From positions 98,951-162,950 of the IMG/VR virus record IMGVR_UViG_3300031992_000021: a stretch of 64,000 bases of DNA; one strand, 5' to 3'. Shown here piece by piece: positions 1-18,065 of the stretch; position 1 is the stretch's first letter; every line of letters starts with the position of its first letter. Under the pieces are notes generated by a model that saw only the letters and a program-made list of their open reading frames with translations, searched no databases and had not been told where the DNA came from. The translations under genes and the position numbers were made by a program. Source of the DNA: a virus (Duplodnaviria; Caudoviricetes).

Positions 1-614
1 CCCATCCGGTGCTCTGCCATCCTTGCCGCAGCGGCACCCGCTCCTCCAGAAGTGGCGCCTTCAATGCCCCTTATCTCCGCTTCGACCTTTGGCAGCTTCC
101 TCTGTGCGGCGGATATCCGATACCAGTCCTTTGCGCTTCTTGCGCCAAGATAACCAGATCCAAGTCCTCCAAGATAAGATCCCCAGGAACCAGCTTCCTG
201 GACCCCTGCGGTGTCTGCCTTGTCCTGACCGGCAGCGTCTGCATCGTAGAACCTTACCGGACCTGCTGCCGTCTGCGCAGACTTCCCGAGACCCTTGCCG
301 AGATTGTATCCGGCGTATGCGCCTGCGGCGCCGGCACCTATAGGGGCAAGAACGCGGATAAGTTTCATCCATGGAGATTCCTTGCGCTTCTCCTCCTCGC
401 TCTTTTCGAGAATGGAAGAAACGATGGCATGAGCCAGAAGGCCGCCGCCGCCGGCGAACGCCCAGTTGGACCAGTCTTTCGACAGGTCTCCTCCGGACGT
501 ACTGTTCGGAAGCTTCATTCCAGACTTGTAGTCCACAAGTTCAGCTCCGGACGGAAGTTCGCTGACGACTTCCCCGGTCGCGCTGTTTACGTACCTTTTC
601 GCTGCTTTTTCCAT
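1..614 (-). CDS. Putative virion/ejection protein with glycine-zipper helices (3' end runs off window)
   Basis: Not in ORF track; manual translation MEKAAKRYVNS...WAFAGGGGLLAHAIV...PIGAGAAGAYAGYNLGKGLGKSAQ... is open to the window edge. Confidence 0.7.
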   Translation of the reverse strand, partial: MEKAAKRYVNSATGEVVSELPSGAELVDYKSGMKLPNSTSGGDLSKDWSNWAFAGGGGLLAHAIVSSILEKSEEEKRKESPWMKLIRVLAPIGAGAAGAYAGYNLGKGLGKSAQTAAGPVRFYDADAAGQDKADTAGVQEAGSWGSYLGGLGSGYLGARSAKDWYRISAAQRKLPKVEAEIRGIEGATSGGAGAAAARMAEHRM

Positions 615-625
615 TGAAGATCCTT

Positions 626-997
626 TCATATCTCAATTACCTCCTCAGTAGGAAGCGTTGCGCCTTTCGTGCGAAGTTCGGTCACTACCGTCTGAAGCCT
701 CTGGATGACCTTCTCCTTCCACGCTATTCCGACTGCGACGGCCTCTTCGTAGGAGCCATAGTCCCTGGAGTCGAATCCCCTGCTGTACGGGAATCCGTGC
801 AGCACGCGAATGAACTCGCTGCCGAAGGTCTTGGACTTTGTCTCGGATTCGTGGACATACTGGATTTCTCCGCCAACGTCGACCTCGGGCTCGCCAAACC
901 TCTCCATGAGTTCGATGTCGCCCTGGCTCCAGTCCTCCGTTGAGACAAGAATGCGGTATACCGCATTGTCCATATCCCTGAAAATACGTATCTTCAT
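626..997 (-). CDS. Hypothetical phage protein
   Basis: 123-aa ORF tightly packed between neighbours in the same orientation. Confidence 0.7.
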   Translation of the reverse strand: MKIRIFRDMDNAVYRILVSTEDWSQGDIELMERFGEPEVDVGGEIQYVHESETKSKTFGSEFIRVLHGFPYSRGFDSRDYGSYEEAVAVGIAWKEKVIQRLQTVVTELRTKGATLPTEEVIEI

Positions 998-999
998 GT

Positions 1000-2469
1000 T
1001 CAGACCCTATTGGAATCCTTTATGGAACTGTCGAGGCTTGTCAGGCGCTCGATGTTTGACATCGCGACGCCCCTGTCGACATCGGAAATCACCTTTGCGT
1101 CGGCAGGAGAGATTGCGATCGAGTTCACTGCGCTGCGCAGGAACGACCTTACCTGTGCCTTGTCGAGAGACACGCGAGGAGAAGTCATCACCATCGCCTT
1201 GTACGTCTCCGCAACCTGGTTGGGGTCTGCATCCCTGATTATGGGATCGTTCGATAGAAGATCGGCAAGGATCATCGATCTCCTGACGTTGAGCAACACC
1301 TGGCGCTCGTTGGCTATTCCTTCGTTCCCGCCAAGCGCTCCGACGGCATCTGAGACCGAAGGTATCGGCATTGTGAGAACGGTGTTGGGAGCAGCCCCCT
1401 TTTCAATGTCCCCCGCAAGCTTCATTACCTCTTCCTCAGAGACACCTGTGTCCCTTATGAGGCTCGCAAGCTTCAGACAGAGGTTGGCATCAGGTATGGA
1501 CTCTCCTGCGTCGGACTCCACTCTCTTCTCTGCACGCTTCTCCTTAGGAATGCCATGAAACATGTCGGCAAGGCCGACATCGTTCTCCTTCCCCTTGAGT
1601 CCTACAGCCTCAAGCATCTCGTTTCTCGCTTCTGCGGCCTTGGAAAGGTAGAAGTCGCGCTTCTTCTCGTATTCCGCAACCATCGCGATGTTGCTCTCGA
1701 TGGTCTCTGCGACCTTGAGCAGGTCGTCAACCAGCCCTGAGTCGAACACGTGCATCTTGGCGAACCTTCCGCCATCGGAATCTGCCACCTTGGTGCTGTA
1801 CTCGGCGATGTTCTTCAAGGCGTTCTCGCTTGAGCAGGCGGCCTTGAACATGTCGGCCATGTCGTCGCTTGCAAAAGGAGCCTCGATTGCCTTGGCGACC
1901 TTTATCGAGTCGCGCTCAACCTCAAGCCTCAGGTTCCTCACAACGTCATCTGCGGCGTCTGCGGCAGACTTGAGCTGTCCGATCTTCTCGTCGATGATCT
2001 TGTACAGGCTGCGCTGGGATACGTTAAGCTCATCGGGAATGCGCTCATTCTCTGCAGAAGCCGCCTTCATCATGGATGCGGCGCCGGATGCACGGGCTTC
2101 GATCGTCGGATTCGTCCTTGACGGGTTGGACCCGTAGAACGAGTAGTCGGCATCCGATTCCGCCGACGCCTTCTTCTGGGTTTGCTTCGAGCACCCGTCA
2201 ACGAGAATCTTAGCAACAGCCTCCTTGCTGGCCAGCTCGCACGAACCTGTAGGATCGCTGGCGTCCTTCTCCTTGTTGAGAGCCGCAAGAGTATTGAACA
2301 TCTCGACGAGACGTTCCGCCTGCTTTTCGTTGAAATCCCATGCTTCCGCGGCGCACGCCACGGCCATGTTTGCGCCCATGCCGCCGTTGTAGTCTGCGGC
2401 GGCAGTCTTGAGCGCTTTCATAAGCTTTTCTTTTATCATGGATCTTTTCTCCAACTCGTACGAATCCAC
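1000..2469 (-). CDS. Hypothetical helical protein, probable virion structural/internal protein
   Basis: 489-aa ORF with many K-x-A motifs (QKKASAE, MMKAASAE, IEKGAAP); own promoter upstream. Confidence 0.7.
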   Translation of the reverse strand: MDSYELEKRSMIKEKLMKALKTAAADYNGGMGANMAVACAAEAWDFNEKQAERLVEMFNTLAALNKEKDASDPTGSCELASKEAVAKILVDGCSKQTQKKASAESDADYSFYGSNPSRTNPTIEARASGAASMMKAASAENERIPDELNVSQRSLYKIIDEKIGQLKSAADAADDVVRNLRLEVERDSIKVAKAIEAPFASDDMADMFKAACSSENALKNIAEYSTKVADSDGGRFAKMHVFDSGLVDDLLKVAETIESNIAMVAEYEKKRDFYLSKAAEARNEMLEAVGLKGKENDVGLADMFHGIPKEKRAEKRVESDAGESIPDANLCLKLASLIRDTGVSEEEVMKLAGDIEKGAAPNTVLTMPIPSVSDAVGALGGNEGIANERQVLLNVRRSMILADLLSNDPIIRDADPNQVAETYKAMVMTSPRVSLDKAQVRSFLRSAVNSIAISPADAKVISDVDRGVAMSNIERLTSLDSSIKDSNRV

Positions 2470-2480
2470 TGTTTGCAGTA

Positions 2481-2509
2481 ATTATACCAAATAGCTCACG
2501 CGATGTCAG
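2481..2509 (-). promoter_or_regulatory. Sigma70-type promoter CTGACA-N17-TATAAT with extended -10 (TG)
   Basis: Minus strand reads ctgaca tcgcgtgagctatttgg tataat, 11 nt before the GTG at 2469. Confidence 0.65.
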
Positions 2510-3582
2510 TTGGCGGGGCCGTAAACCGAACTTACGGTGTTGGTCGGAGATGCGTACTGCTCCCAAGAGGGAATTTCAGGACTGCTCCCCTTCCTCGCGG
2601 CCTCAAGCTCCTGTCTCGATTTCCACCAGTCCTTTGCGGCGTCGACAGCCTGCGGGCCTCCATACATGTGCCATCCGAGGGCATAGGACGGAACCTTGGA
2701 AGCCGCCCCTACCGTCCTTGGCGCCATCTTGCCGATCCTTGTGGCATTCGCCATCCTGCCTAAAGCTCCAACGCCTTTGGACAGGGCACCAATGCTCTTC
2801 ACTCCGCCGGCGAGATTGAGTGCCATCTCCGAATATCCGGCGATGGTGTCCCCTGTCTGGAGATCGGCAATGCGCGGGTCGTTTGCCAGCGCCTCTCCGC
2901 GGCTCTGGAGATCCTCCATCCTCTTTACGAGCTCAGGATACCTTGGATCGCTCTCGGATATGTTACCGTCACCTACGTCCCTCTGAAAAGCCTTAAGGTC
3001 TGAATTGAACCTTTCGTGCTCATCAGCGAAGTCCTTTCCGTATGTTCTGGCCAGATATCCTGGACGTTCCGAATCTACGCGGCTCGTCGCGTAGTCCCTC
3101 CACGACCCAAGCGGGGTGAACCTATCCTGGAATTTGCGTACATTGTTCCCGGCATTCTCGGAAAACATGTCTACGACGCCAGGAACGAACTCGTTTGCCA
3201 CATTTGAAAGGCTCTGTTCAAGCCTCGCATCGGCGTACGGAGCTTCCCTCCATCCGACCTTTGCGCCGGTCGAAATCCCCTTTCCTATGGACTTCAACGA
3301 ATCCTTGAAACGTCCCCAATCGGTGAATGCCTTCCAGCCATGGTTCCTGTCAGCCTCGTTTGCGCCTGCGAAAGCACCTCCCAAAGCGCCAGGAACCGTC
3401 ATGGCCGCTCTGGTGACATACTCATCAACCTCTGGAAACCCCCTGCTTGCAGAGTTGATGAACGCCTTGGCTCCCCTTGCGATGTTGTCCGCACCTTTTC
3501 GGTATACCTCAGGCTTGTATACAGGGGGCACGATGAGCTGCGCCTGCTTTACAAGACGGTCTATCTCAGAAAGTACGCCCAT
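2506..3582 (-). CDS. Hypothetical glycine-zipper protein, probable virion/ejection protein
   Basis: 358-aa ORF; GALGGAFAG and other Gly-rich amphipathic segments; LVKQA near N-terminus; abuts the RNAP gene. Confidence 0.65.
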   Translation of the reverse strand: MGVLSEIDRLVKQAQLIVPPVYKPEVYRKGADNIARGAKAFINSASRGFPEVDEYVTRAAMTVPGALGGAFAGANEADRNHGWKAFTDWGRFKDSLKSIGKGISTGAKVGWREAPYADARLEQSLSNVANEFVPGVVDMFSENAGNNVRKFQDRFTPLGSWRDYATSRVDSERPGYLARTYGKDFADEHERFNSDLKAFQRDVGDGNISESDPRYPELVKRMEDLQSRGEALANDPRIADLQTGDTIAGYSEMALNLAGGVKSIGALSKGVGALGRMANATRIGKMAPRTVGAASKVPSYALGWHMYGGPQAVDAAKDWWKSRQELEAARKGSSPEIPSWEQYASPTNTVSSVYGPAN

Positions 3583-6500
3583 TCAAGCCTCCTTTATCTC
3601 GATTGGATCGTTAGGACCGATCTCTCCGTTGCGGTATGCCGCCACGGCCTCTGCCTTGCTGTTGAAGTACCTCGTAGGCTTCCTGGTCCTGCCCCTTGTA
3701 AGAGCCCACAACCCTGAAATCTGCTCCTTCTCTGGCTTGTAGCGCATCGACTTGAGATCGGTAAGGCTGAACAGGTTCTTGGACGGAAGCATCTTCTCCA
3801 TGGCCTGGTTCGCGGCCTTCATGCTCGCCGGCACGTGGATGTTGACGGTATCTCCGTCGTGGTCCATGTTGAATCCGCTGTCGATGAGCGGACAGACGTG
3901 GATCGAACGCCCCTTGACGATATGAGGCTTGAACGCCATGATATTGAACTTGTGCCACGTAGGCGCACGGTCCATGATAACCGGCCTTTCCTCCATTGCG
4001 TCGTCAAGGATGTGCCTTGCCGTGGCGTTCTTCTCCTCGATCATCTTCTTCGCTGTAAGAGGGGAATACCCTCTCTGGATGAGCTTGCGCTCAACGTGCG
4101 GCTTGTACATTTCCCAGGCCATTTCCTCAGGGATGCCGATCTGGTCCATGTCGAGGTTCTTGTCCGGGATGGTGACGGAACGACCGACGTTGTCCTGCGT
4201 CTTGGATATCACCTTGGACTGGTACATGCCGAACTTTGGTATCGTGCCGATGACCTGGCGTATGGCCCCTTTCAGGTTCTTCGCCTGGCCTTCTGCCGTG
4301 ATCGGATCACCAAGTCCGTAGGCCGCCTTTACGGCGCCGTACACCGCAAGGCGCTCGTCGGCGAGCGCAGATGCCGGAAGCTCCTTGGCAAGTGCCTCGT
4401 AGTTGCTCTTCATCTCGATGAGATCCTTGTAGAGCTCGTTCATGTCTGGAACGAGCGCCACATCTCCCATTTTGGCGACGGGGCGGAACATGGGAGGAAG
4501 GACCGGGACCCTTGTGATCATCCAGTCTTCAGGCTTCTTCCCCATCTCCTTCGCGGCCTTCAGGTATCCGAGCACCTTTATGGCGTTGTCCCGCTGCGAT
4601 CCCCTGCGGTTCTTTATCTCTGCCCTGGCGCGTTCGATGGAGTCGTCGATGTCTATCTTGGAGAGAGCATCCTTGATGGCGTCTCCGCCGGTCTTGCCGT
4701 TGAGTTCCTCGCGCCCGGAGAGAACCGCCTCCATCTTCTTGGCCGTAAGACCGAGTACTCGGCGTACAGGCTCCTCCATCATCGGGTTTGGAACCGCCTC
4801 CGGAAGCACGATCATGCTCCAGCGGTTGCCTCCCATGCCGCCGGTCTTTCCGAGATCGAACATTCCTCCCTTCACAGGCTGGAAATCGGAGTCGACCATC
4901 TGCGAGTTCTCAAGGACGCGCCCCTGTGCGAGCTCGTCGATATCCGCATCGGTCTGAGGCATTATCGACGTGACGTCGCCCTTCTCGACGACGTTCACGC
5001 CGCCGGCCTTTAGCGTATTGAGGAACTTCTTGTAGATGAACGGCACTCCAGGCTCTTCGACCGGCAACCCAAGACGGTAGCGGCGCCAGAACTCGTCGTT
5101 CATCTGGCCGCGGGTCGTCATCGAGTCCTTGATCACCTCTGTTGCTCCGTGCGACAGGAGGGCGAGGTTGTCGAATCCGGATATGCGCTTCGCTCCGTCT
5201 ACGCCTCCCTTGGCCGGCTGCTCGTCCTGCGTATAGGCTCCGTCAACGCCGCGGGCGGAGTATTTCTTCTCGGCGAGGTGATGAAAAGCCTTTACGTACG
5301 AATATCCATCGCCTACATTGCGGATTGTACGTCCTGTCTGAGGATCGAAAACATCTGCAGTCTCCTTAACGCCGGCGTCGGCCATCTGCTTCTCTGTCCA
5401 CGCAAGCCATCCCTCAGGAGGAGGAAGCTGCGGTAGACGGATCTGCTTTCCGGTCTTCTTGGCGACCTTGGCGAGATTCATGAGCATCACCTGCCCAGGA
5501 GCGACACGGGAAAGGAACCCCATCGGGTTCATGAGCATGTCGTAAGGCTCGTTTGTGGTGGCGTCCCGCGGCATCTTGTCCATGGGAAGTATTCCGCCGA
5601 CAACACCCTTGAGCCCCTGTTCCGGCGACAGCTTGTCACCAACCTTCACAGGCGGCTCGCTCTTCACGATGACCTTTACTCCATGTGCGCCGGCCACGAC
5701 GTCGGTGACTACTCCAGGCCAGTCGTGCTCCCATTTCTGGGACTTGTCGGTAAGCGCATTCTTGAGAACGCTCGACAGCTTCCCGAGCTGGGCATCTTCG
5801 GCCGAGAGCATCTTAGGCCCGATCGCCAGAATCATGGGATCGTCTCGATGGAGGACCGTCCCAACCTTCACGACGCCATTTTCGTCTATAGTGTCGGACT
5901 GGGCCTTCGTGTAGGCTTTCGGGAACGCGGCAAGATACTTGTTCCGTGCCACCTGAACGCCCTCTTTCGTGTCCTGCTCGAACCCGTAGAGCCTCGAAGT
6001 GGCGAGCTTCTTGGCCGCATCTTCGGATATCACGATTGCGTCTTCGTAGGAGGAAACGCCTGCAGGAGCGGGAAGGACCGCAACCTTTAGGTTACGCCCC
6101 ATGTTCATCGCGCCGGTCTTGGCGTCGGTGAAGTTCGAGTTTGCGAGAATCCCGCCCTCCTGAACCTCGTCTCCTTTCTTGACCTGCGAAAAGTACGTTA
6201 TGCCGGTCATCCGGTTGAACGGAAGCCCTTGTACAAGACTGGACGTATGAGTCTGTCCGTCCTTGCCGCGAATGACGATCTCCTTGTCGTTGGCCTTGAT
6301 GACAGTGCCGGCGAACGGAGCCGTAAGACATCCCACCTTGCGCCCGTAGAACTCGCTGAAAGTAGCCTTTCCGTCGTCCATGAGGCTGTCCACCAGCGGT
6401 ACTTCGCCCTCCTTCTGCGGAAGGTACTGCTCCCAGAACTTGGACATGTAGAACTGGCGCCCTGCCTGAACCGTTGAAGGCATCGGAGTCATGTTGATGC

Positions 6501-8940
6501 CGGCGGAAACAGTATTTCCGAATCCGGGAACCATGTAGTCGACCTCGTCACGATCAACCATGGTGGGAATACCCTTGCGCATGGCGTACAGACGAGGAGC
6601 CTTCGGATCCTGTCCGGGGAAAGCGACCGTGTGCGATGCCGCGTCGTCAAGGGCCACGTATCTGGTCTTGCCGGTCCGAAGATCCATCATCTTGTTGTAG
6701 AGCCTGTTGTCGCTGCCCTTCATGGTGCCGAGCGCCGCCCGGACGTCGATGCCGATCCCGAAAGATTCAGGGCCGCTGATGAAGTCGACAAACCCAAGAT
6801 AGTCTCCCTGAACGTTGCGTGCCTCCGGAGTAACAAGATCCGGAGAAGATATGCCGCCCTCGCCCAAACGCGTGATGCGCGACTGCTGGGTGAGGATTGA
6901 CAGGGGGTTAGCCTCCTCGCCCGGCATGGCGAGGCCGGAACCCGAAAGGAAAGTGTCGAGATACGGAGCAAGAGCGTTGCGCCCGATTCTGGCAAGGTTC
7001 TTGTCCCGCTTTGCCCTGAACAGCATGGACTTGGTGAGCCTGCCGGCGTCCTTGTCGATGCGCTCGCGCATCATGTCCTCGATGCCGTAGAACTTGCTGA
7101 AGCGAGGGTTGTCGCGTTCGTCAGGATCTTCGGCGCCGCGGTTGATGTTGAGGAGCTTCTGGGCCGCCCTGAGGATCACCTGTCCGGTAACGCCATTTAC
7201 ATTCTCAAGTCCGAGCGTGCGTACGACAACATCCGGATCGAGTCCGCTTCCTGAAAGCGCCTCGCTCACGAACTTTGCCTTGTCCGCAGGAGAAAGGCTC
7301 ATGTCGGCCTTGCGTCCGGCATACCTGGCGTAGACCTTGTCGAGGGCACGCGGATCCATCTTTCCGACGTTTACGGAAGTCACCTCGTTGCCCCAAGACT
7401 TCCTGATGTCCTCGTCAGACACGCCGATCGCCCTGAGCACGGGATATAGAGGCACATGGCCCTGCCCGACGCTCATGTTGAGGGCGCCGGTCTCGCGGTC
7501 GAGACCTATCCTGAATCCAAGACCGTTCGCGACGTTGAACTGGGATTCGAGTTCGCCGTTCTGCTTGCGGCGAACGTACACGCCAGGGGAGAGGCGTGCC
7601 TGAGAAATGACCGTATACTCGTTGCCGTTGTTGATGATCGTCCCGCGGTCGGTATAGTACGGAACCCTTATGATCCCGTCGCGTCGCTCGTCGAGAACCT
7701 TACCAGTCTTCTTGTCTGTAAGGCGCCATGTGCCGGCTATGGAACACCCAAGCCTGCGGTTGTTGAGAAGGGCCTGCTTCTGCTGCTCGAGCGTGTAGGA
7801 CGTAGGCCCCTCGTACTTCACGTCGCGAAGTTCGAGCCTTACGTCGTCGTCCTCGACCGGGAAACGGTTCTTGACCGCCTCCAGGACGTTGTCCATGATG
7901 GCAGTGCGGGTAGCCGGAGCATCGATGAACGAGCGGAGCTTGACGCCGGCCGGAACTCCTTCCATGGGATCGTCCTGCTTGGCCTCTGCCGTCTTCTCCT
8001 GTTTCTTTGCGAAAAACTTTCTGACCTTCTCGCGCTGCTCTTCCTCAAGCTTGACAAGGAGCTTTTCCGCATCCTCTTCGGAATCAGCCAGAGGCAACGG
8101 CCAGTCTCCATGCCCGCCGTACATTGCCAGTCCAAGCGTCCTGTTCTTTTCTCCGTCATGCCCTGTATGATCAAGCCAGCAACACCAGTAGTCACGGCCA
8201 TTATCGCGCTTGCCACCGTAGTACCATCCAACTATCTTCCCTATCTTCGGTCCTCTCACGCAAGGTTCGACGACCCACTTCCCCTTAGGGAACTTCTTCT
8301 TCATCTCCTCTGGGACAGGATGGTCGGCATCATCCTCCGGAGCAGCTTCCGCAGCCTTGACCTTTATGGTATCGACTATCGGCTTTACGGACGCGTACTC
8401 GTGAAAAGGCTTGGTCTTGCGGGTGGAAGAATCGATCCACTTGCGGAACTCGGCCTTCGTGACCGGCGTGATCCAGCCAAGTCCGCCCCAACCCTTCTGG
8501 TAGCAGGCAAGGTACGTCTTCTTGGCGTCCTCGATGCTGTCGAATCCGTACATGACCTTGTGCTCGTCGAACTTCTTGGTCTTGGGATCGATCTGGTCGA
8601 TGACGAACACGGCTCCCTTCTCAGGATGGTCGGAAAGGTAGATGTCGACAGGATCCCCGTCGACGCTCTCCGTGCCGCGGATGTCGCCGTAGTCGCAGGC
8701 GAGCATGTTGCGCCACTTCGTTCCGTCAGGAGACGTCCCGGAACGGTACGAGCCCTTCGGATTCTCGATGGAAATGCGGAAGCCGTCAAGGTTGAGATGT
8801 ACCTTGCGGTAGTTTCCGACGCGCTTCTGCCCGTCGGTAGGATCCTTTGCGGCATCCGGAGCGCCTGCGTTCACAGCCCTCTGCGCAGGCGAAGACGCCC
8901 GCTTGCCGAACATCTGCTGTATGGTTTCGGTAAGGGTCAT
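3583..8940 (-). CDS. Phage multisubunit-type RNA polymerase: N-terminal inorganic pyrophosphatase domain + beta-like + beta' N-terminal half fusion
   Basis: PPase motif DGDPVDI; beta motifs FPVED..RGTIINNG..SQARLSPGVY, VGDKLS..GLKGVV..MP..DMLMNPMGFLSR..GQ, HHLAEKKYSAR; beta' motifs PEDWMITRVPVLPPMFRP, GRSV, RAPTWHK, catalytic NMDHDGD at 3850-3870. Confidence 0.93.
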   Translation of the reverse strand: MTLTETIQQMFGKRASSPAQRAVNAGAPDAAKDPTDGQKRVGNYRKVHLNLDGFRISIENPKGSYRSGTSPDGTKWRNMLACDYGDIRGTESVDGDPVDIYLSDHPEKGAVFVIDQIDPKTKKFDEHKVMYGFDSIEDAKKTYLACYQKGWGGLGWITPVTKAEFRKWIDSSTRKTKPFHEYASVKPIVDTIKVKAAEAAPEDDADHPVPEEMKKKFPKGKWVVEPCVRGPKIGKIVGWYYGGKRDNGRDYWCCWLDHTGHDGEKNRTLGLAMYGGHGDWPLPLADSEEDAEKLLVKLEEEQREKVRKFFAKKQEKTAEAKQDDPMEGVPAGVKLRSFIDAPATRTAIMDNVLEAVKNRFPVEDDDVRLELRDVKYEGPTSYTLEQQKQALLNNRRLGCSIAGTWRLTDKKTGKVLDERRDGIIRVPYYTDRGTIINNGNEYTVISQARLSPGVYVRRKQNGELESQFNVANGLGFRIGLDRETGALNMSVGQGHVPLYPVLRAIGVSDEDIRKSWGNEVTSVNVGKMDPRALDKVYARYAGRKADMSLSPADKAKFVSEALSGSGLDPDVVVRTLGLENVNGVTGQVILRAAQKLLNINRGAEDPDERDNPRFSKFYGIEDMMRERIDKDAGRLTKSMLFRAKRDKNLARIGRNALAPYLDTFLSGSGLAMPGEEANPLSILTQQSRITRLGEGGISSPDLVTPEARNVQGDYLGFVDFISGPESFGIGIDVRAALGTMKGSDNRLYNKMMDLRTGKTRYVALDDAASHTVAFPGQDPKAPRLYAMRKGIPTMVDRDEVDYMVPGFGNTVSAGINMTPMPSTVQAGRQFYMSKFWEQYLPQKEGEVPLVDSLMDDGKATFSEFYGRKVGCLTAPFAGTVIKANDKEIVIRGKDGQTHTSSLVQGLPFNRMTGITYFSQVKKGDEVQEGGILANSNFTDAKTGAMNMGRNLKVAVLPAPAGVSSYEDAIVISEDAAKKLATSRLYGFEQDTKEGVQVARNKYLAAFPKAYTKAQSDTIDENGVVKVGTVLHRDDPMILAIGPKMLSAEDAQLGKLSSVLKNALTDKSQKWEHDWPGVVTDVVAGAHGVKVIVKSEPPVKVGDKLSPEQGLKGVVGGILPMDKMPRDATTNEPYDMLMNPMGFLSRVAPGQVMLMNLAKVAKKTGKQIRLPQLPPPEGWLAWTEKQMADAGVKETADVFDPQTGRTIRNVGDGYSYVKAFHHLAEKKYSARGVDGAYTQDEQPAKGGVDGAKRISGFDNLALLSHGATEVIKDSMTTRGQMNDEFWRRYRLGLPVEEPGVPFIYKKFLNTLKAGGVNVVEKGDVTSIMPQTDADIDELAQGRVLENSQMVDSDFQPVKGGMFDLGKTGGMGGNRWSMIVLPEAVPNPMMEEPVRRVLGLTAKKMEAVLSGREELNGKTGGDAIKDALSKIDIDDSIERARAEIKNRRGSQRDNAIKVLGYLKAAKEMGKKPEDWMITRVPVLPPMFRPVAKMGDVALVPDMNELYKDLIEMKSNYEALAKELPASALADERLAVYGAVKAAYGLGDPITAEGQAKNLKGAIRQVIGTIPKFGMYQSKVISKTQDNVGRSVTIPDKNLDMDQIGIPEEMAWEMYKPHVERKLIQRGYSPLTAKKMIEEKNATARHILDDAMEERPVIMDRAPTWHKFNIMAFKPHIVKGRSIHVCPLIDSGFNMDHDGDTVNIHVPASMKAANQAMEKMLPSKNLFSLTDLKSMRYKPEKEQISGLWALTRGRTRKPTRYFNSKAEAVAAYRNGEIGPNDPIEIKEA

Positions 8941-8951
8941 CGCGTTGCCTT

Positions 8952-10508
8952 TCAGGCCTTTGCCGGCTGATCTGTCTGTGCGGCAGGGAACATTTTCCTG
9001 ATCCTGTCCTCAACCATGCCCTGCCCAAAGCTTGTATTCTTGGCAAGTGAAGACAGAATGTTGAACAGCCACCCGTCCTTCTTGAAGGTGCGTCCTATGT
9101 AGTCGTCAATCATCTGATTGCCATAGCTCTTGAACGCATCGTCATCGCGGAACTTCCCGATCATCATGTCCTGGAACCTTCCGCTAGACATGAGCTTGTC
9201 CTTGAAAGCCGGGGAATTATAGGAGTTCGACGGAGTCTTCCACCACGTCTTGAACTTGTCCCACGCCCCCATGCCTTTAGATGCGGTAGACTTGATAGCT
9301 CCGATCGCGGAGTTCACGGCGTCATCGTCTCCAGATACGTAAGCCTTTGTAAGGTTCAGGAGATTTCCGCTGTTCTCCGGCATTCCGAGCGCATCGACGG
9401 CGCCATTGACGATATCATCCTGCGACGCGCCATTGAACCCCAGAAATGCGTCCTTCTCGATTCCGGAACGGTCTATGCGCTCCGCCCCGACGATCATCGC
9501 CCTCTTAACCAAGATTGCTGACAGGGCCGTTTCGGCCGATATTGCGATCTCCTTGTCCTCCGAGGTCTTGTACAGTATCAGAGGCTCGTCCGGATAGCTG
9601 TCCGACTGAAGGGACTTCTTCTTGGCATCGGCCTTGCGCTTCTCCATGATCTTGTTCACTATCACAGCCGAAAGCGCGGCCGGAAGCATGAATGCCCCGC
9701 CAAGCGTCGTGAGCGCGGTGTATGCCATGTTGTCGCCTGCGGCCTGAGCCGACTTCTCTCCGCCCTCAAGGAGCTTTACGTACTCCTCGCGTGCATTCTC
9801 GACATCTTCGTTGGAACGCGACTTCCTGACGTTGTTCACAGCCTCCACGAGCTTTGCCGCCAGATACACGCTCGCAAGACCTCCGGCCGTAAATGCGAGC
9901 GGCCTTACGACGCCAGCGCTGAACATCGCCTTCCCCGTCCTGTCCGGATGGGTTATCATGTCAAGGAAGCCCTCGGCGGACTTCTCCTCATGAGCTACGG
10001 CTACAGGGTCTGTAGGACTTGCGAACCTGCCGTTCACATCCCTCAAGACCGCACCTTCTCCATCCTTCTTGTCGGACTTCCCGCATTCCTTCGTTGCTTT
10101 GTCCTCTGCTTTCTTGACAGAGGCCGCCTTTCCGAAGAAATCAACCTTCCTTCCGTTCACGATGGACTTCTTTTTGGCCTCGATGTCTTCTGCCGACATT
10201 TCCGCGGAGGGAGTGACTGCGCCTGGCTTGGACGAAGCCGCAAACGTCTTGGCGAAGTCATCCGGAGTGGGAAGCCCGCTCATGAACGACTCTTTCTTGA
10301 CCGGAACGATTATGACGTTCCTCGCCTTTCCGAGATCGGTCAGGTCCTTCTTGTCTTTCTTCGCCTTGAGCCTGCTCATTACGACCCCTGCGCCGGCGGC
10401 AAGAGTGCCTGCGCCAAGTGCCGCCTTGAGATACTTCATGAAGATTGCCTTGTCCGCATCGGACATCGCCTTTTTTTCTACTGGATTGCTCATTCTACAC
10501 GCCTCCAT
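8952..10508 (-). CDS. Hypothetical membrane-associated/virion protein
   Basis: 518 aa with three hydrophobic Gly/Ala helices separated by EKxA motifs (EKKA, EKSA x2, EKDA). Confidence 0.65.
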   Translation of the reverse strand: MEACRMSNPVEKKAMSDADKAIFMKYLKAALGAGTLAAGAGVVMSRLKAKKDKKDLTDLGKARNVIIVPVKKESFMSGLPTPDDFAKTFAASSKPGAVTPSAEMSAEDIEAKKKSIVNGRKVDFFGKAASVKKAEDKATKECGKSDKKDGEGAVLRDVNGRFASPTDPVAVAHEEKSAEGFLDMITHPDRTGKAMFSAGVVRPLAFTAGGLASVYLAAKLVEAVNNVRKSRSNEDVENAREEYVKLLEGGEKSAQAAGDNMAYTALTTLGGAFMLPAALSAVIVNKIMEKRKADAKKKSLQSDSYPDEPLILYKTSEDKEIAISAETALSAILVKRAMIVGAERIDRSGIEKDAFLGFNGASQDDIVNGAVDALGMPENSGNLLNLTKAYVSGDDDAVNSAIGAIKSTASKGMGAWDKFKTWWKTPSNSYNSPAFKDKLMSSGRFQDMMIGKFRDDDAFKSYGNQMIDDYIGRTFKKDGWLFNILSSLAKNTSFGQGMVEDRIRKMFPAAQTDQPAKA

Positions 10509-10510
10509 TG

Positions 10511-10900
10511 TTATTTTTCCGAGTCTTCGGACGATGCCGCTCCAAACTCGACGTATTCGACGTACTTCATCCAGTACGAAGTCCCGTCCTTTCTCTGGAC
10601 AAGATCCTTGTGGTGGTCCACTATGACCTCCATCCTGGATGCCTTTTCAAGAAGTTCAGTCCAAAGCTTCTCGTACTCCTTGACCTGCTTTGCATTCGAC
10701 AAGTCGAATATGCGGACGCACACCTTCTTGATCTTGACTGATTCCGTCGGCTTTCCGCCGGTTGCGTTGTCGATCAGCTTCTGGTATGCCGCCTTCTCGG
10801 CGCTGCTGCTGAAAAGGCTTTCAGGCGTAATCATGCTACGCCCGGAACCAGACATCGGGATTCCGCCAGGAACGGCTATCGAGGAAAAGCCTGACATCAC
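10511..10900 (-). CDS. Hypothetical phage protein
   Basis: 129-aa ORF overlapping the upstream stop (GTGA). Confidence 0.65.
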   Translation of the reverse strand: MMSGFSSIAVPGGIPMSGSGRSMITPESLFSSSAEKAAYQKLIDNATGGKPTESVKIKKVCVRIFDLSNAKQVKEYEKLWTELLEKASRMEVIVDHHKDLVQRKDGTSYWMKYVEYVEFGAASSEDSEK

Positions 10901-11403
10901 TCGCCCCTTTCGTCAAGTGCCGCAACGAGCGCGTCGTACTTCTGCCTGTACTCCTCCGGAGTCATCTTCTTGTAAGACCGTTTAAGCTCGTCTCGCATTG
11001 ACCTGACCCTGTCCATCCACTTGGCGTCCTCGAGCTCGCGCTTCCTGTTCTTGAACATGGCCTCGATCTTCCTGTTCATCTTAGTCTTCGGATCTTCCTG
11101 CTGAAGACTGTCCTTCAAGGTGTTGTACACTCCGCCGGCAAGGGCTCCCGTTCCCGCTCCTGCGGCAACCAGGTTCATGATGCCCTTGGGGACTGCCGCA
11201 GCGGCCCCGAAGAGACCCGATGCACCGGCAGCGGTAAGCCTTCCTGCCGTCTTGAGTCCAGCCAGGAACTTTGCCACGCTGAACGCATCCTTCTCCATTT
11301 CAGGAATGATTTCATTGGCCTTTTTCTCAGTCATTAGGCCCGTAAGCATCGATGCGAAGAATATGTCGTCCGCATGCTCTTTTCCCAAGATTTTCTCTAC
11401 CAT
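10897..11403 (-). CDS. Hypothetical glycine-zipper protein
   Basis: 168 aa; AGAGTGALAGG; EKKA and EKDA motifs. Confidence 0.65.
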   Translation of the reverse strand: MVEKILGKEHADDIFFASMLTGLMTEKKANEIIPEMEKDAFSVAKFLAGLKTAGRLTAAGASGLFGAAAAVPKGIMNLVAAGAGTGALAGGVYNTLKDSLQQEDPKTKMNRKIEAMFKNRKRELEDAKWMDRVRSMRDELKRSYKKMTPEEYRQKYDALVAALDERGE

Positions 11404-11413
11404 AGATCCTCCA

Positions 11414-11767
11414 TTACCACTTGCTGATGGCCGAAACGGCCCCGAAGCCTGTTCCGAGACCTTTTAGAAAGGGTTTGTTAGTGAACGCGCTCGTTATGGC
11501 CCTTCCGAGAACGCCTCCGCCAAGCATCCTTAGCGCATTGCCGGCAGGAGACGTGTTCACAAGCCCGGAATTGATGATCCTTCCGAACGCATCGCGCCTC
11601 TCGTCCGGAGTTCCGATTCCTCTGGCCTGTGCCACGCCGATTGCGGCGAGCACGTCGGAAACGGTAGGAGGCGGATTGCTGTAACCGACCGTGGGGTTCC
11701 ACGGGGTTGGAGCAATACCGTACGCGATCTTCTCGAGAGCACGTCTCTTGTTTAGACTGACAGACAT
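11414..11767 (-). CDS. Hypothetical glycine-zipper protein (probably leaderless start MSVSLNK)
   Basis: ATG at 11767 lies 7 nt after TATAAT; LEKIA motif; C-terminal GGGVLG..LGTGFGA. Confidence 0.65.
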   Translation of the reverse strand: MSVSLNKRRALEKIAYGIAPTPWNPTVGYSNPPPTVSDVLAAIGVAQARGIGTPDERRDAFGRIINSGLVNTSPAGNALRMLGGGVLGRAITSAFTNKPFLKGLGTGFGAVSAISKW

Positions 11768-11774
11768 GCCAATA

Positions 11775-11803
11775 ATTATATCAGTTTTATCCCATGTCAT
11801 CAA
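11775..11803 (-). promoter_or_regulatory. Sigma70-type promoter TTGATG-N17-TATAAT with extended -10, heading the virion/RNAP operon
   Basis: Minus strand ttgatg acatgggataaaactga tataat tattggc ATG. Confidence 0.7.
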
Positions 11804-15916: not shown

Positions 15917-15991
15917 TGGATGAGGAGGTGTGAGTCGAACACACATGGGGCGATTCAAAGCCGCCCGTACTTTCCGTTGTACTACTCCTCA
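15917..15991 (-). tRNA. tRNA-Gln(TTG)
   Basis: Cloverleaf, loop CTTTGAA, U1-A72, encoded CCA. Confidence 0.9.
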
Positions 15992-15995
15992 ATGA

Positions 15996-16069
15996 TGGTC
16001 GGAGATGAGTGAGTCGAACACTCGCCTTCTGGGCCCAAGCCAGGCGTGCTGCCGTTATACCAATCTCCG
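15996..16069 (-). tRNA. tRNA-Pro(TGG)
   Basis: Loop CTTGGGC, CGG acceptor, CCA. Confidence 0.9.
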
Positions 16070-16070
16070 A

Positions 16071-16146
16071 TGGAGCTGAGTAATGGAGTCGAACCATCAA
16101 CCTGCTGCTTACAAGGCAGCCGCACTGCCTATTGTGCTAACTCAGC
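16071..16146 (-). tRNA. tRNA-Thr(TGT)
   Basis: Loop CTTGTAA, CCA. Confidence 0.92.
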
Positions 16147-16147
16147 A

Positions 16148-16223
16148 TGGTACTCCGAGAGGGGATCGAACCCTCAACCCGCAGATTAAGAATCTGCTGC
16201 TCTACCAGTTGAGCTACCGGAGC
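16148..16223 (-). tRNA. tRNA-Lys(CTT)
   Basis: Loop TTCTTAA, CCA. Confidence 0.92.
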
Positions 16224-16230
16224 ACTTAAA

Positions 16231-16305
<75 letters not shown>

Positions 16306-16308
16306 AAA

Positions 16309-16387
16309 TGGTTGCGGAGGCAGGGATTCGGACCCGCGTGGACCTGCTTATGAGACAGGCGCTGGAACCACTCCAGTCCACTCCGCA
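16309..16387 (-). tRNA. tRNA-Met(CAT), initiator-like acceptor
   Basis: Loop CTCATAA; acceptor TGCGGAG/CTCCGCA-ACCA; lacks GGG/CCC in anticodon stem. Confidence 0.82.
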
Positions 16388-16412
16388 ATGACTTGACTAA
16401 GTATACCATAAA

Positions 16413-16487
16413 TGGCTGGGGAAGTGTGAATCGAACACACATACTCCGGGTCAGAGCCGGATGCACTTGCCGTTGTGCTATTCCCCA
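16413..16487 (-). tRNA. tRNA-Gln(CTG)
   Basis: Loop CTCTGAC, U1-A72, CCA. Confidence 0.9.
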
Positions 16488-16488
16488 A

Positions 16489-16563
16489 TGGAGCATCCAG
16501 CGGGAATCGAACCCGCATCATCTGCTTGGAAGGCAGAGACCCTGGCCATTGGATGATGGATGC
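16489..16563 (-). tRNA. tRNA-Gly(TCC)
   Basis: Loop CTTCCAA, U73, CCA. Confidence 0.9.
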
Positions 16564-16576
16564 ACAAATGCTAAAA

Positions 16577-16653
16577 TGGTTGTCGCGGCAGGACTCGGAC
16601 CTGCGTATGCCGGTGTATCAGACCGGTGCGTTAACCAACTTCGCCACGCGACA
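16577..16653 (-). tRNA. tRNA-Ile(GAT)
   Basis: Loop CTGATAC, T-loop variant TCCGAGT, CCA. Confidence 0.85.
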
Positions 16654-16659
16654 ATTGAA

Positions 16660-16736
16660 TGGAGATCGAGGTGGGAATCGAACCCACATTTTCGGTTTTG
16701 CAGACCGCCGCCCATTCCAATATTGACAACTCGACC
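16660..16736 (-). tRNA. tRNA-Cys(GCA)
   Basis: Loop CTGCAAA, U73, CCA. Confidence 0.85.
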
Positions 16737-16748
16737 TATAATTACAGA

Positions 16749-16830
16749 TGGTGCGCGATGAGGGACTTGAACCCCCACGCCGAAGCGTCTGGACCTAAAC
16801 CAGATGTGTCTGCCGTTTCACCAATCGCGC
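16749..16830 (-). tRNA. tRNA-Leu(TAG)
   Basis: Loop TTTAGGT, long variable arm, CCA. Confidence 0.9.
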
Positions 16831-16837
16831 ATTTCAA

Positions 16838-16911
16838 TGGCAGGAGTTCCTTGAGTCGAACAAGGCTCATCGCTTTTGGAGAGCGAGGCACGGCCGATAT
16901 ACCAAACTCCT
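16838..16911 (-). tRNA. tRNA-Trp(CCA)
   Basis: Loop CTCCAAA, A1-U72, G73, CCA. Confidence 0.88.
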
Positions 16912-16912
16912 A

Positions 16913-16990
16913 TGGTGGGCGATACAGGAGTCGAACCTGTAGAGACCTGCTGTCTGAGAGCAGTATGACTGCCAGTTGCATCAATCGCCC
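16913..16990 (-). tRNA. tRNA-Leu(CAG) with short variable region
   Basis: Loop CTCAGAC, A73, 6-nt variable region, CCA. Confidence 0.8.
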
Positions 16991-16996
16991 GTCAAA

Positions 16997-17079
16997 TGGT
17001 CGCCACAGAGGGACTCGAACCCCCATGCACAAGGCCGGCGGGTTTGAGCCGCCTACGTCTGCCGTTCCGTCATGTGGCG
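16997..17079 (-). tRNA. tRNA-Leu(CAA)
   Basis: Loop CTCAAAC, long variable arm, CCA. Confidence 0.88.
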
Positions 17080-17080
17080 T

Positions 17081-17164
17081 TGGTGCCGAGTGAGGGACTC
17101 CAACCCCCAAGCGCTAGGCGTCGAGGCTTAAACTCGATGTGTATGGCAGTTTCACCAACTCGGC
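17081..17164 (-). tRNA. tRNA-Leu(TAA)
   Basis: Loop TTTAAGC, long variable arm, T-loop TTGGAGT, CCA. Confidence 0.85.
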
Positions 17165-17168
17165 AAAA

Positions 17169-17243
17169 TGGCGGGGTATAGCGGAGTCGAACCGCTCCAA
17201 GGAGATCGACAATCTCCCGTACTAACCGATATACGAATACCCC
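17169..17243 (-). tRNA. tRNA-Asp(GTC)
   Basis: Loop TTGTCGA, G73, CCA. Confidence 0.88.
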
Positions 17244-17251
17244 AATGAATA

Positions 17252-17346
17252 TGGCGGAGAAGCCGCGACTCGAACGCGGACGTGACCTTGCGACCACTAC
17301 TGGCTGTTTAGCAAACAGCTGCCTTGCCAATTAGGCTTACTTCTCC
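17252..17346 (-). tRNA. tRNA-Ser(GCT)
   Basis: Loop TTGCTAA, long variable arm, G73, CCA. Confidence 0.88.
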
Positions 17347-17347
17347 A

Positions 17348-17440
17348 TGGCGGCAGGAGGGGATCTCGAAACCCCACAGGGCTCATCACCCTTACTCGCG
17401 GTGTTCAGGGCCGCTACCTTGCCTTTAGGTTTATCCTGCC
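17348..17440 (-). tRNA. tRNA-Ser(TGA), C33
   Basis: Loop CCTGAAC, long variable arm, G73, CCA. Confidence 0.8.
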
Positions 17441-17444
17441 AGAA

Positions 17445-17538
17445 TGGCGGAGGTGGAGGATCACGATACCCCACACGGCCTTGCGACCGCTACTGGACGG
17501 CTTCCGACCGTCTGCCTTGCCTTTAGGCTTACACCTCC
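17445..17538 (-). tRNA. tRNA-Ser(GGA), C33 and divergent T-loop
   Basis: Loop TCGGAAG, long variable arm, G73, CCA. Confidence 0.78.
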
Positions 17539-17542
17539 AAAA

Positions 17543-17636
17543 TGGCGGAGAGGGGGAGTCTTGAAATCCCACGGGGCCTTGCGACCCGTACTGGATGCTT
17601 TCGAGGCATCTTCCTTGCCTTTAGGATTACCTCTCC
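17543..17636 (-). tRNA. tRNA-Ser(CGA)
   Basis: Loop CTCGAAA, long variable arm, G73, CCA. Confidence 0.82.
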
Positions 17637-17640
17637 AAAA

Positions 17641-17724
17641 TGGTGGGACTGAGAGGACTCGAACCTCCACGCCGAAGCACTACCACCTCAAGGTAGCGTG
17701 TACTGCCAATTTCACCACAGTCCC
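17641..17724 (-). tRNA. tRNA-Leu(GAG)
   Basis: Loop TTGAGGT, long variable arm, CCA. Confidence 0.88.
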
Positions 17725-17737
17725 GTTAAATCGAATA

Positions 17738-17814
17738 TGGCAGCTCCTGGGGGACTCGAACCCCGCATTTCCTGGCTGAGAACCAGGCGTACTGACCGAT
17801 TATACGAAGGAGCC
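17738..17814 (-). tRNA. tRNA-Glu(CTC)
   Basis: Loop TTCTCAG, CCA. Confidence 0.88.
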
Positions 17815-17817
17815 ACT

Positions 17818-17895
17818 TGGTAGCGGCAGCGGGGATCGAACCCGCAGATTCCTCCTTGAAAGGGAGGTGGCTCTAACCGGTTTGCCTATGCCGCC
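17818..17895 (-). tRNA. tRNA-Glu(TTC)
   Basis: Loop CTTTCAA, CCA. Confidence 0.88.
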
Positions 17896-17903
17896 ACTTA
17901 AAA

Positions 17904-17989
17904 TGGTCGTGCGTCAGGGTATCGAACCCCGCCTCCCCTAGGGGCCCAGATTTACAGTCTGGTGGCCGTCCTTAGACCTATACCGCACG
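17904..17989 (-). tRNA. tRNA-Tyr(GTA) with C1-G72
   Basis: Loop CTGTAAA, long variable arm, acceptor CGTGCG/CGCACG-A-CCA. Confidence 0.82.
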
Positions 17990-17990
17990 T

Positions 17991-18065
17991 TGGCTCTAGG
18001 GGCCGGAGTCGAACCGGCAACCACCGCATTAACAGTGCGGCGCACTACCATTGTGCTACCCTAGA
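17991..18065 (-). tRNA. tRNA-Asn(GTT), first gene of the array
   Basis: Loop CTGTTAA, U1-A72, G73, CCA. Confidence 0.92.

Follow-up and report, generated by a model that had tools for sequence, protein, structure and literature searches.

A modular beta-beta' RNA polymerase precursor of a tailed phage with an N-terminal InPase domain and a variable cassette slot

Main finding

The final 64 kb (64,000 nt, hereafter the window, to which all positions refer unless they are marked as genome positions) of the 162,950-bp viral record IMGVR_UViG_3300031992_000021, for which CheckV gives a completeness of 92%, contain one unbroken open reading frame (ORF) of 1785 aa, window 3583-8940 (-), whose product is a precursor of modular build for the sole multisubunit RNA polymerase (RNAP) of this uncultured phage. 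In this precursor, an N-terminal leader, a domain of the phage InPase family, resembling the family-I pyrophosphatases (PPases), a small beta-barrel (cassette X), an RNAP beta-like part and the N-terminal half of beta' follow one another in a single chain (Table 1). Such a fusion of a PPase to a beta-beta' RNAP, in one frame and with an unnamed domain of ~100 aa in between, had been proposed in a first-pass annotation made from the letters alone; the frame proved to be uninterrupted, and the same order of domains was returned by Pfam and PHROGs. The best explanation as a whole, to which a probability of about 0.45 is assigned, is that the precursor is packaged in the virion and serves early transcription in the next host, with the InPase domain clearing the inorganic pyrophosphate (PPi) and with the slot in which it lies acting as a carrier.

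The InPase domain

Residues 37-169 match the Pfam family InPase (PF18823) with 170.2 bits against a cut-off of 26.8 (E = 2.6e-50; 2-134 of the 135 model positions), and residues 25-190 are matched by a dozen InPase-bearing PHROG families (DarB-like, virion structural, minor head, endolysin). The PPase signature pointed out on first reading, DGDPVDI, indeed fits the pattern D-[SGDN]-D-[PE]-[LIVMF]-D-[LIVMGAC]. The model predicted by AlphaFold2 (AF2) from a 55-row multiple sequence alignment (MSA) scored 76.6 on average in the predicted local distance difference test (pLDDT), and most of InPase (residues 51-190) reached block means of 79-95; a single-sequence AF2 model of residues 1-350, with a pLDDT of 42, was discarded for the MSA-based one. 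The top 50 Foldseek matches of the AF2 model were all family-I PPases (probability up to 0.99), the E-values being only ~2e-3 because the model spans several domains, and the all-against-all structure search with VIA-align found PPases at a moderate Z of 6.1-6.4 over residues 48-174 (113-117 aligned, root mean square deviation 3.4-3.8). Hence the PPase-fold domain of the polyvalent-protein type, as anticipated by the first-pass annotation, is represented by the PF18823 match and a predicted PPase barrel in which the acidic residues are kept.

Among 39 homologues of 38-90% identity, there is no variation at E59, R66, Y84, D94, D99, D125, E126, H127 or K128 and next to none at D96 and D115, and in the 102 RNAP fusions described below all of these residues, D96 and D115 included, are invariant. 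The conservation of InPase among the fusions equals or exceeds that of the RNAP core, and its identity to the copies in polyvalent proteins is 40-58%. The fusion clade carries the DGDPVD of true PPases, while DGDHVD is usual in polyvalent proteins. From these residues, InPase looks catalytically intact. The domain was also aligned with the sequence of the Pa193 portal (PDB 9b41) at E = 6e-27 over residues 48-179.

The same conservation bears on the reading of InPase as a structural or packaging module, e.g. for capsid or portal docking, with its catalysis irrelevant or lost. InPase is fused to the C-termini of portals and to members of PHROG families named 'virion structural' and 'minor head', and in the polymerases it always adjoins the N-terminal leader; however, acidic and basic active-site candidates that are invariant in 102 sequences and across 39 distant homologues are unexpected for mere docking, and the clade member P0095, being without InPase, retains the leader. 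A docking module is thus regarded as very improbable.

RNA polymerase parts

The polymerase parts match the Pfam models directly, with RNA_pol_Rpb2_6 at residues 926-1245 (113 bits) and RNA_pol_Rpb1_2 at residues 1635-1715 (77.5 bits) both above the cut-off, and in PHROGs residues 662-1336 are matched by phrog_24349 (beta) and residues 1409-1775 by positions 163-533 of phrog_25354, whose 1216 positions represent the whole of beta'. The beta' motif NMDHDGD (1691-1697) is followed by the stop 88 residues further on. The C-terminal half of beta' is encoded by a separate 629-aa gene, genome 49160-51049 (-), which lies 53 kb from the RNAP gene and matches Rpb1_5 (42.4 bits, cut-off 28.5) and positions 636-1104 of phrog_25354, complementary to the fused half. 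No second RNAP set was found in the 162,950-bp record. A sigma-like gene resembling gp10 of Salmonella phage Arash is located at genome ~72.5-72.8 kb. A different and larger ORF of 533 aa, genome 27636-29237 (-), matches phrog_351 'RNA polymerase sigma factor' with its residues 245-521 (E = 1.4e-74).

Recurrence and phylogeny

The word-indexed search returned ~90 clusters of 76-96% identity in which PF18823, PF00562 and PF00623 occur together, and the fusion is present in 102 of the 131 retrieved relatives, drawn from ENA, Logan, JGI and NCBI assemblies with contigs of up to 192 kb, one exact sequence being found on 8 contigs. Since it recurs in this way in four sources, an assembly or gene-calling artefact, by which a fragment of a polyvalent protein would have been joined to the RNAP gene and which the first-pass annotation had named as a possible refutation, is excluded in practice; moreover, the frame is open over 5355 nt.

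Relatives of 60-70% identity are ~1460-1490 aa long and lack InPase. When the core (residues 346-1500) was used as the query of an exhaustive HMMER search, 1416 representatives were found at E <= 1e-30, and the best 150 of these 1416 (representatives of clusters at 50% identity) all had E < 1e-216 and all look, judged by length and matched span, like fused beta-beta'N enzymes; in nearly all of the best 150 there is no long N-terminal extension, as the start of the query maps to target residues ~15-80. The InPase hidden Markov model matched 0 of 148 other RNAP cluster representatives. In the tree of the beta N-region, the 102 carriers fall within one clade of 105 members (SH-aLRT 82), with a single gain and with sister clades that lack InPase; among the three non-carriers of the clade, one is truncated, one has a short N-terminus and one has a LysM-lysozyme in place of InPase. 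The survey of homologous RNAPs for the PPase domain, proposed together with the original observation, thereby comes down to one clade of carriers, surrounded by sister clades and 148 other clusters without the domain. Judged from the sequences, the fusion is genuine, of recent origin and limited to a single clade.

The nearest named phages, Arash and the Vibrio phages D69, D148 and D181, are ~30% identical over residues 352-1782. No near-identical DNA was present in the phage collection, in which only four isolates cover 80% of the query. The fused beta-beta'N RNAP family, large in metagenomes, is little studied.

Many RNAP genes of the clade (P0022, P0028, P0041, P0046, P0064, P0070 and others) are extended to 2000-2700 aa by LAGLIDADG/intein insertions (PF14528, PF03161, PF14890) at several beta and beta' positions; the copy in the window has none.

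Cassette slot, border motif and leader

The slot extending from the end of InPase to the conserved entry of beta (DDPMEGVP..KLRSF.DA.ATR) measures 31-714 aa among the relatives, and its content differs among proteins with identical beta N-regions. In the present protein, it is occupied by cassette X, the ~100-aa domain left without a name in the first-pass annotation, in which AF2 with MSA predicts, at residues 216-300, a small barrel of the SH3/Tudor/chromo-like kind and, behind it, a long helix (pLDDT 77-92); its structural matches at Z 5-6 (PWWP, SH3 and Tudor-like domains of CarD and UvrD/PcrA) are within the tool's range for common folds and point to no function. Cassette X is found in ~60 clusters, as two variants ~54% identical, and is absent in many relatives. 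LysM together with Phage_lysozyme2 occupies the slot in eight clusters, one of them without InPase, and several rarer slot modules matched no Pfam or PHROG family; for one rare cassette, a language-model look-up gave only sub-threshold leads (0.84, including LPD23), which were set aside. InPase is the constant first cassette, as it is present in 102 of the 105 clade members, always first and always next to the leader. Disparate activities are thereby joined in one polypeptide, as in polyvalent proteins: InPase and RNAP here, and InPase, LysM, lysozyme and RNAP in the relatives. No peptidase family, such as the zincin-like self-processing peptidase common but not universal in polyvalent proteins, was matched in the whole 1785-aa protein with Pfam and PHROGs.

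Every cassette border in the slot sequences carries the motif K-x-[AS]-[QE], as in PIKVKAAE past InPase and EKTAQAKQDDP ahead of beta, both of which stand in tandem between two cassettes. In the 1785 residues of the present protein, the motif occurs just twice, at 195 and 316, and it is missing from the 1440-aa core, where 1.4 would be expected. Over the 102 fusions, the motif lies 20-40 residues ahead of the core anchor in 98, and at most 12 residues past InPase in 79, or in 96 when a looser pattern is used. Its count is 83 genome-wide (49.8 +/- 7.3 expected), and 31 in the 16 genes of genome 86.9-110.7 kb, i.e. window 1-11800 and the DNA upstream of it, which is an approximately threefold excess over the 10.8 +/- 3.2 expected; the maximum in 1000 shuffles of this head block was 24. 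In the head-block proteins, an E or V often stands in front of the motif. In the capsid protein, it lies near the N-terminus (residue 28, within LEKVAQ at residues 26-31) and shortly precedes the Arash-aligned part, which starts at residue 34; two small neighbours have it at residue 12, and a 530-aa Ala/Lys-rich protein encoded next to the capsid gene has seven copies. From this distribution, it appears as a candidate site of a head-maturation protease. Because the slot is variable and its borders are marked by the motif, InPase may be one of several cargoes and, instead of being a permanent part of the enzyme, may be cleaved off in head maturation.

The first ~12 residues of the leader resemble the similar leader, amphipathic and conserved, with which the sister-clade RNAPs without InPase open (P0097-P0113; M-x-L-K-x-A-I-D-E-W-L), and which is followed there by (E/V)K-x-A-Q, the acidic DD.DP..MP.GRL and then the core. 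The likeness suggests that an N-terminal propeptide predates the cargo cassettes; the simplest reading would be a propeptide with a maturation site, into which the cassettes were inserted. It is possible, and offered only tentatively, that the RNAP N-terminus is a programmable cargo-loading slot, composed of the leader and of cassettes each bracketed by a head-protease site of the K-x-A/S-Q/E type, from which enzymes loaded 1:1 with the polymerase would be freed on maturation for co-ejection. By analogy, and with the same reserve, such a slot might be the natural counterpart, on an RNAP, of the capsid-targeting-sequence trick of T4, and a motif-bounded slot, if real, would offer a ready-made route for foreign proteins into capsids. 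The absence of a leader from the Arash homologue Gp206 counts against the propeptide, and the conserved linkers could serve as recombination joints only, which counts against cleavage.

Gene context and probable virion carriage

Within the head/structural block, the RNAP gene adjoins its neighbours closely, head-to-tail, and is followed by genes of 358, 489, 123 and 316 aa, by the 848-aa homologue of Arash gp222, by three further genes and by the capsid protein gene (genome 91267-92274). It lies ~10 kb upstream of the capsid gene, and the order of RNAP, gp222-like structural protein and capsid protein is that of Arash. This position is weak evidence for virion carriage, since nearly all genes share one strand. 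The ORFs of the head block are mostly without a PHROG match, and neighbouring genes of 518, 358, 489, 129, 168, 129, 206 and 330 aa gave no significant Pfam or PHROG family, weak sub-threshold hits being disregarded.

In purified Arash particles analysed by liquid chromatography-mass spectrometry, the homologous Gp206 ranked first in detection, with 3516 spectra and 128 unique peptides, the capsid protein giving 1333 spectra, the beta' C-half Gp216 1210 and the sigma Gp10 467 (PMC10585845). Polyvalent proteins packaged in virions, and portal tails, are the usual setting of the InPase family (PMC5512222), and in 77 of the 77 nearest non-RNAP InPase loci in IMG/VR, the domain lies within ORFs of 650 to >4000 aa, most of them 2000-4000 aa; those ORFs are classical polyvalent proteins. 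By analogy with these systems, the polymerase is probably virion-borne, and because InPase occupies a slot where relatives carry other enzymes, the polymerase is probably accompanied in the particle by helper enzymes that serve the first minutes of infection.

Alternatively, the enzyme could be an intracellular middle or late RNAP whose tethered PPase boosts bulk transcription in the infected cell. The single RNAP set of the genome would suit this, as would the weakness of the positional evidence where nearly all genes are on one strand, and possible contamination of the particles by abundant enzymes is noted by the Arash authors themselves (PMC10585845). However, the RNAP was top-ranked in those particles, above the capsid protein (PMC10585845), the relatives of InPase are virion-associated, and a LysM-lysozyme makes little sense on a polymerase that is only cytoplasmic: an in-frame peptidoglycan hydrolase would be difficult to account for if the polypeptide were not carried in the particle and active in entry. 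A polymerase that is not virion-borne is accordingly judged improbable.

The 848-aa gp222 homologue mentioned above, genome 96079-98625 (-), lies just before the window and contains an intein (Hint_2, LAGLIDADG_3, Intein_splicing); this gene, again of 848 aa, is also found downstream of the RNAP gene in the relative L008.

Proposed role and its alternatives

In the preferred explanation, a packaged RNAP that carries its own InPase, the precursor would be produced late, alongside the head proteins, and would, as is the case for the homologue in Arash particles, be packaged in the capsid; this is the most confident step. The RNAP would then enter the next host with the DNA and, joined by the beta' C-half and a sigma-like factor, transcribe the early genes, a step second in confidence. 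Third, InPase would hydrolyse the PPi from each nucleotide addition, so that synthesis is favoured by mass action, pyrophosphorolysis is limited and a local build-up of Mg-PPi is prevented. It would act either tethered to beta or after cutting at the K-x-A/S-Q/E linkers, such a release being the least confident step. InPase would be the fixed first cassette of the slot, to which relatives add LysM-lysozyme or modules of no named family; as the slot loads all of these, the polymerase would double as a carrier of entry enzymes. The use of pyrophosphatase to keep Mg-PPi from accumulating is established practice in in vitro transcription, and PPi clearance appears plausible. The first-pass annotation had justified it by early transcription in a sealed compartment away from the host PPase, and this rationale found no support: neither the nuclear shell protein (phiKZ gp54) nor Pfam Tubulin was matched in the 92%-complete record, which is a weak negative, the gp54 search having been run without a positive control. 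A local or transient benefit where the DNA enters needs no compartment.

Several observations weigh against this explanation. PPase is already present in the host cytoplasm. The alignment with E. coli PPase by hhalign is confined to the Y-G-x-I...DGDPVD core (probability 92%; Y84 = E. coli Y55, D94/D96/D99 = D65/D67/D70) and is unreliable elsewhere, phmmer gave E = 0.26 in the motif region only, and the canonical Pfam family PF00719 was not matched at E <= 0.1; because only the core aligns and PF00719 is unmatched, the domain belongs to the phage InPase clade and not to the housekeeping family. The literature search found no structure or enzyme assay of any PF18823 or phage InPase member. No match to the prohead protease families S78, S77 and ClpP was found in the genome. 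The InPase that forms the C-tail of Pbunavirus portals was without cryo-EM density in its portal-borne copy (PMC11042391). The Arash RNAP, only 30% identical, lacks InPase, and the Arash preparation contained 116 of 272 proteins, for which the authors allow carry-over of abundant enzymes (PMC10585845). Finally, because lysozyme and unrelated cassettes share the slot, the fusion may reflect co-delivery and not functional coupling.

The last point leads to the main rival, in which InPase is an injected effector with no special link to transcription and the RNAP precursor only its vehicle; the enzyme might then destroy a pyrophosphate-containing nucleotide defence signal or perturb the PPi metabolism of the host. 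The swapping of LysM-lysozyme and unrelated modules between near-identical RNAP cores speaks for it, as do the cassette borders, whose motif, enriched in head proteins, suggests release by cleavage, and the nearest InPase homologues, which reside in polyvalent proteins without a polymerase; the hydrolysis of a nucleotide signal was also the first hypothesis of Iyer et al. for InPase (PMC5512222). Yet InPase is the one constant cassette of the slot (102 of 105 clade members, always first), and the clade has the canonical DGDPVD, not the DGDHVD usual in polyvalent proteins. Co-delivery alone is therefore considered unlikely, though it comes ahead of every other rival to a packaged polymerase with its own PPi-clearing enzyme.

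Relation to known systems

Arash (Gp206, Gp216, Gp10) and the Vibrio phages D69, D148 and D181 share the layout in which beta and the N-half of beta' are fused, the C-half is separate and a sigma-like factor is encoded elsewhere, and in Arash the RNAP gene is also in the structural block. However, unlike the present protein, Gp206 starts 26 residues ahead of the core and has neither leader nor InPase nor cassette slot. The Arash protein annotated as 'pyrophosphatase', Gp23, was rejected as a counterpart of InPase, since its sequence is unrelated and it has no homologue in this genome; from its appearance, it is presumably MazG-like.

The InPase domain itself and its virion context were defined by Iyer et al. 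in 2017, who also proposed that PPi clearance would aid early transcription (PMC5512222). The copies in polyvalent proteins and in the Pa193 portal gp19 (PDB 9b41) are of the same family and in a virion context, but they lie inside 2000-4000-aa proteins or at the portal C-terminus and were never described with a multisubunit RNAP (PMC5512222), whereas here the domain is N-terminal, has DGDPVD in place of DGDHVD and is joined to beta. The same work described N4-type virion RNAPs fused to lysozyme, ART and peptidase domains (PMC5512222). N4 gp50 and the N4-like RNAP polyvalent proteins are likewise late-encoded, packaged and injected for the early genes, with lysozyme/transglycosylase and other effectors fused in relatives; however, gp50 is a single-subunit T7-like enzyme always fused to a zincin peptidase, whereas the present one is a two-barrel beta/beta' enzyme in which no peptidase was detected.

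Phage RNAPs of the beta/beta' type are also present in the particles of phiKZ and AR9, and an HD phosphohydrolase fused C-terminally to a beta fragment was reported for the AR9 group of Bacillus phages in the 2021 jumbo-phage survey (PMC7824862). The phiKZ-type RNAPs are composed of 4-5 polypeptides in two sets and belong to nucleus-building phages, whereas the present phage has one set, fused and not split, which is closer to the cellular RNAP, and gave no shell protein or tubulin match in the 92%-complete record. In the crAss-like phage phi14:2, gp66 is a single large virion-delivered two-barrel RNAP. In contrast to the present RNAP, which is recognised directly by the Pfam models, gp66 is extremely diverged and goes undetected by beta/beta' models (gp66 mentioned in PMC7481178).

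The searchable literature yielded no InPase joined to a beta/beta' polymerase and no cassette slot on such an enzyme, so the impression on first reading that the fusion had not been described held, with its functional idea anticipated in 2017. Since Iyer et al. already had the domain, the virion context and the PPi-clearance idea, the precursor is best placed as a variant of the polyvalent proteins and virion RNAPs and not as a new category. It would be the first genomic link of a phage-type InPase to a polymerase, and it turns the 2017 hypothesis, by which PPi clearance jump-starts transcription, into a simple test, the same enzyme with versus without its own PPase. It would also mean that a cellular-type beta/beta' polymerase, in convergence with N4, has joined the strategy of polyvalent, injected proteins, known until now for the single-subunit RNAPs of the N4 type.

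Feature coordinates and genomic surroundings

The features of the RNAP gene and of the two genes that flank it are collected in Table 1. An internal translation start at M326 was considered and rejected, as there is no Shine-Dalgarno-like sequence upstream of this codon.

Table 1. Parts of the RNAP precursor and adjoining genes, with window positions.
Feature	Residues	Position	Strand	Remarks
Whole gene, 1785-aa precursor	1-1785	3583..8940	-	Leader, InPase, barrel X, beta, beta' N-half; stop codon included
N-terminal leader	1-35	8836..8940	-	Two predicted helices
InPase domain	36-190	8371..8835	-	PF18823, family-I PPase-like barrel
DGDPVDI	94-100	8641..8661	-	Family-I PPase signature
KAAE	195-198	8347..8358	-	Directly after InPase; candidate cleavage or cassette-border site
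Cassette X	216-300	8041..8295	-	Small SH3/Tudor-like beta-barrel (predicted)
KTAE	316-319	7984..7995	-	End of helix 288-321, just before the DDPMEGVP...ATR core entry
RNAP beta-like part	~346-1345	4906..7905	-	Rpb2_6 at 926-1245; phrog_24349
RNAP beta' N-terminal half	~1346-1785	3586..4905	-	Rpb1_1 (weak), Rpb1_2; phrog_25354 positions 163-533/1216
NMDHDGD	1691-1697	3850..3870	-	beta' Mg-binding catalytic motif, NADFDGD equivalent
Upstream co-oriented gene, 518 aa		8952..10508	-	No family match; four K-x-[AS]-[QE]; stop 11 nt ahead of the RNAP start
Downstream gene, 358 aa		2506..3582	-	No family match; KQAQ at residue 12; starts directly past the RNAP stop codon

Elsewhere in the record, several features were observed besides the polymerase. 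A dense array of 20 tRNA genes at window 15917-18065 (-), with Gln x2, Pro, Thr, Lys, Ala, Gly, Ile, Cys, Leu x5, Trp, Asp, Ser, Glu x2 and Asn, sits between the large terminase gene (window 18896-20650, a homologue of Arash gp1) and the RNAP block. The giant ORF of 2998 aa at genome 18162-27158 (-) has no Pfam match, and phrog_9915, a family of unknown function, was matched in six stretches of it. A near-consensus promoter of the sigma-70 type (CTGACA-17-TATAAT, extended TG, 11 of 12 matches) is found at window 2481-2509 (-), where it lies over the end of the 358-aa reading frame and the short interval that separates this frame from the 489-aa gene.

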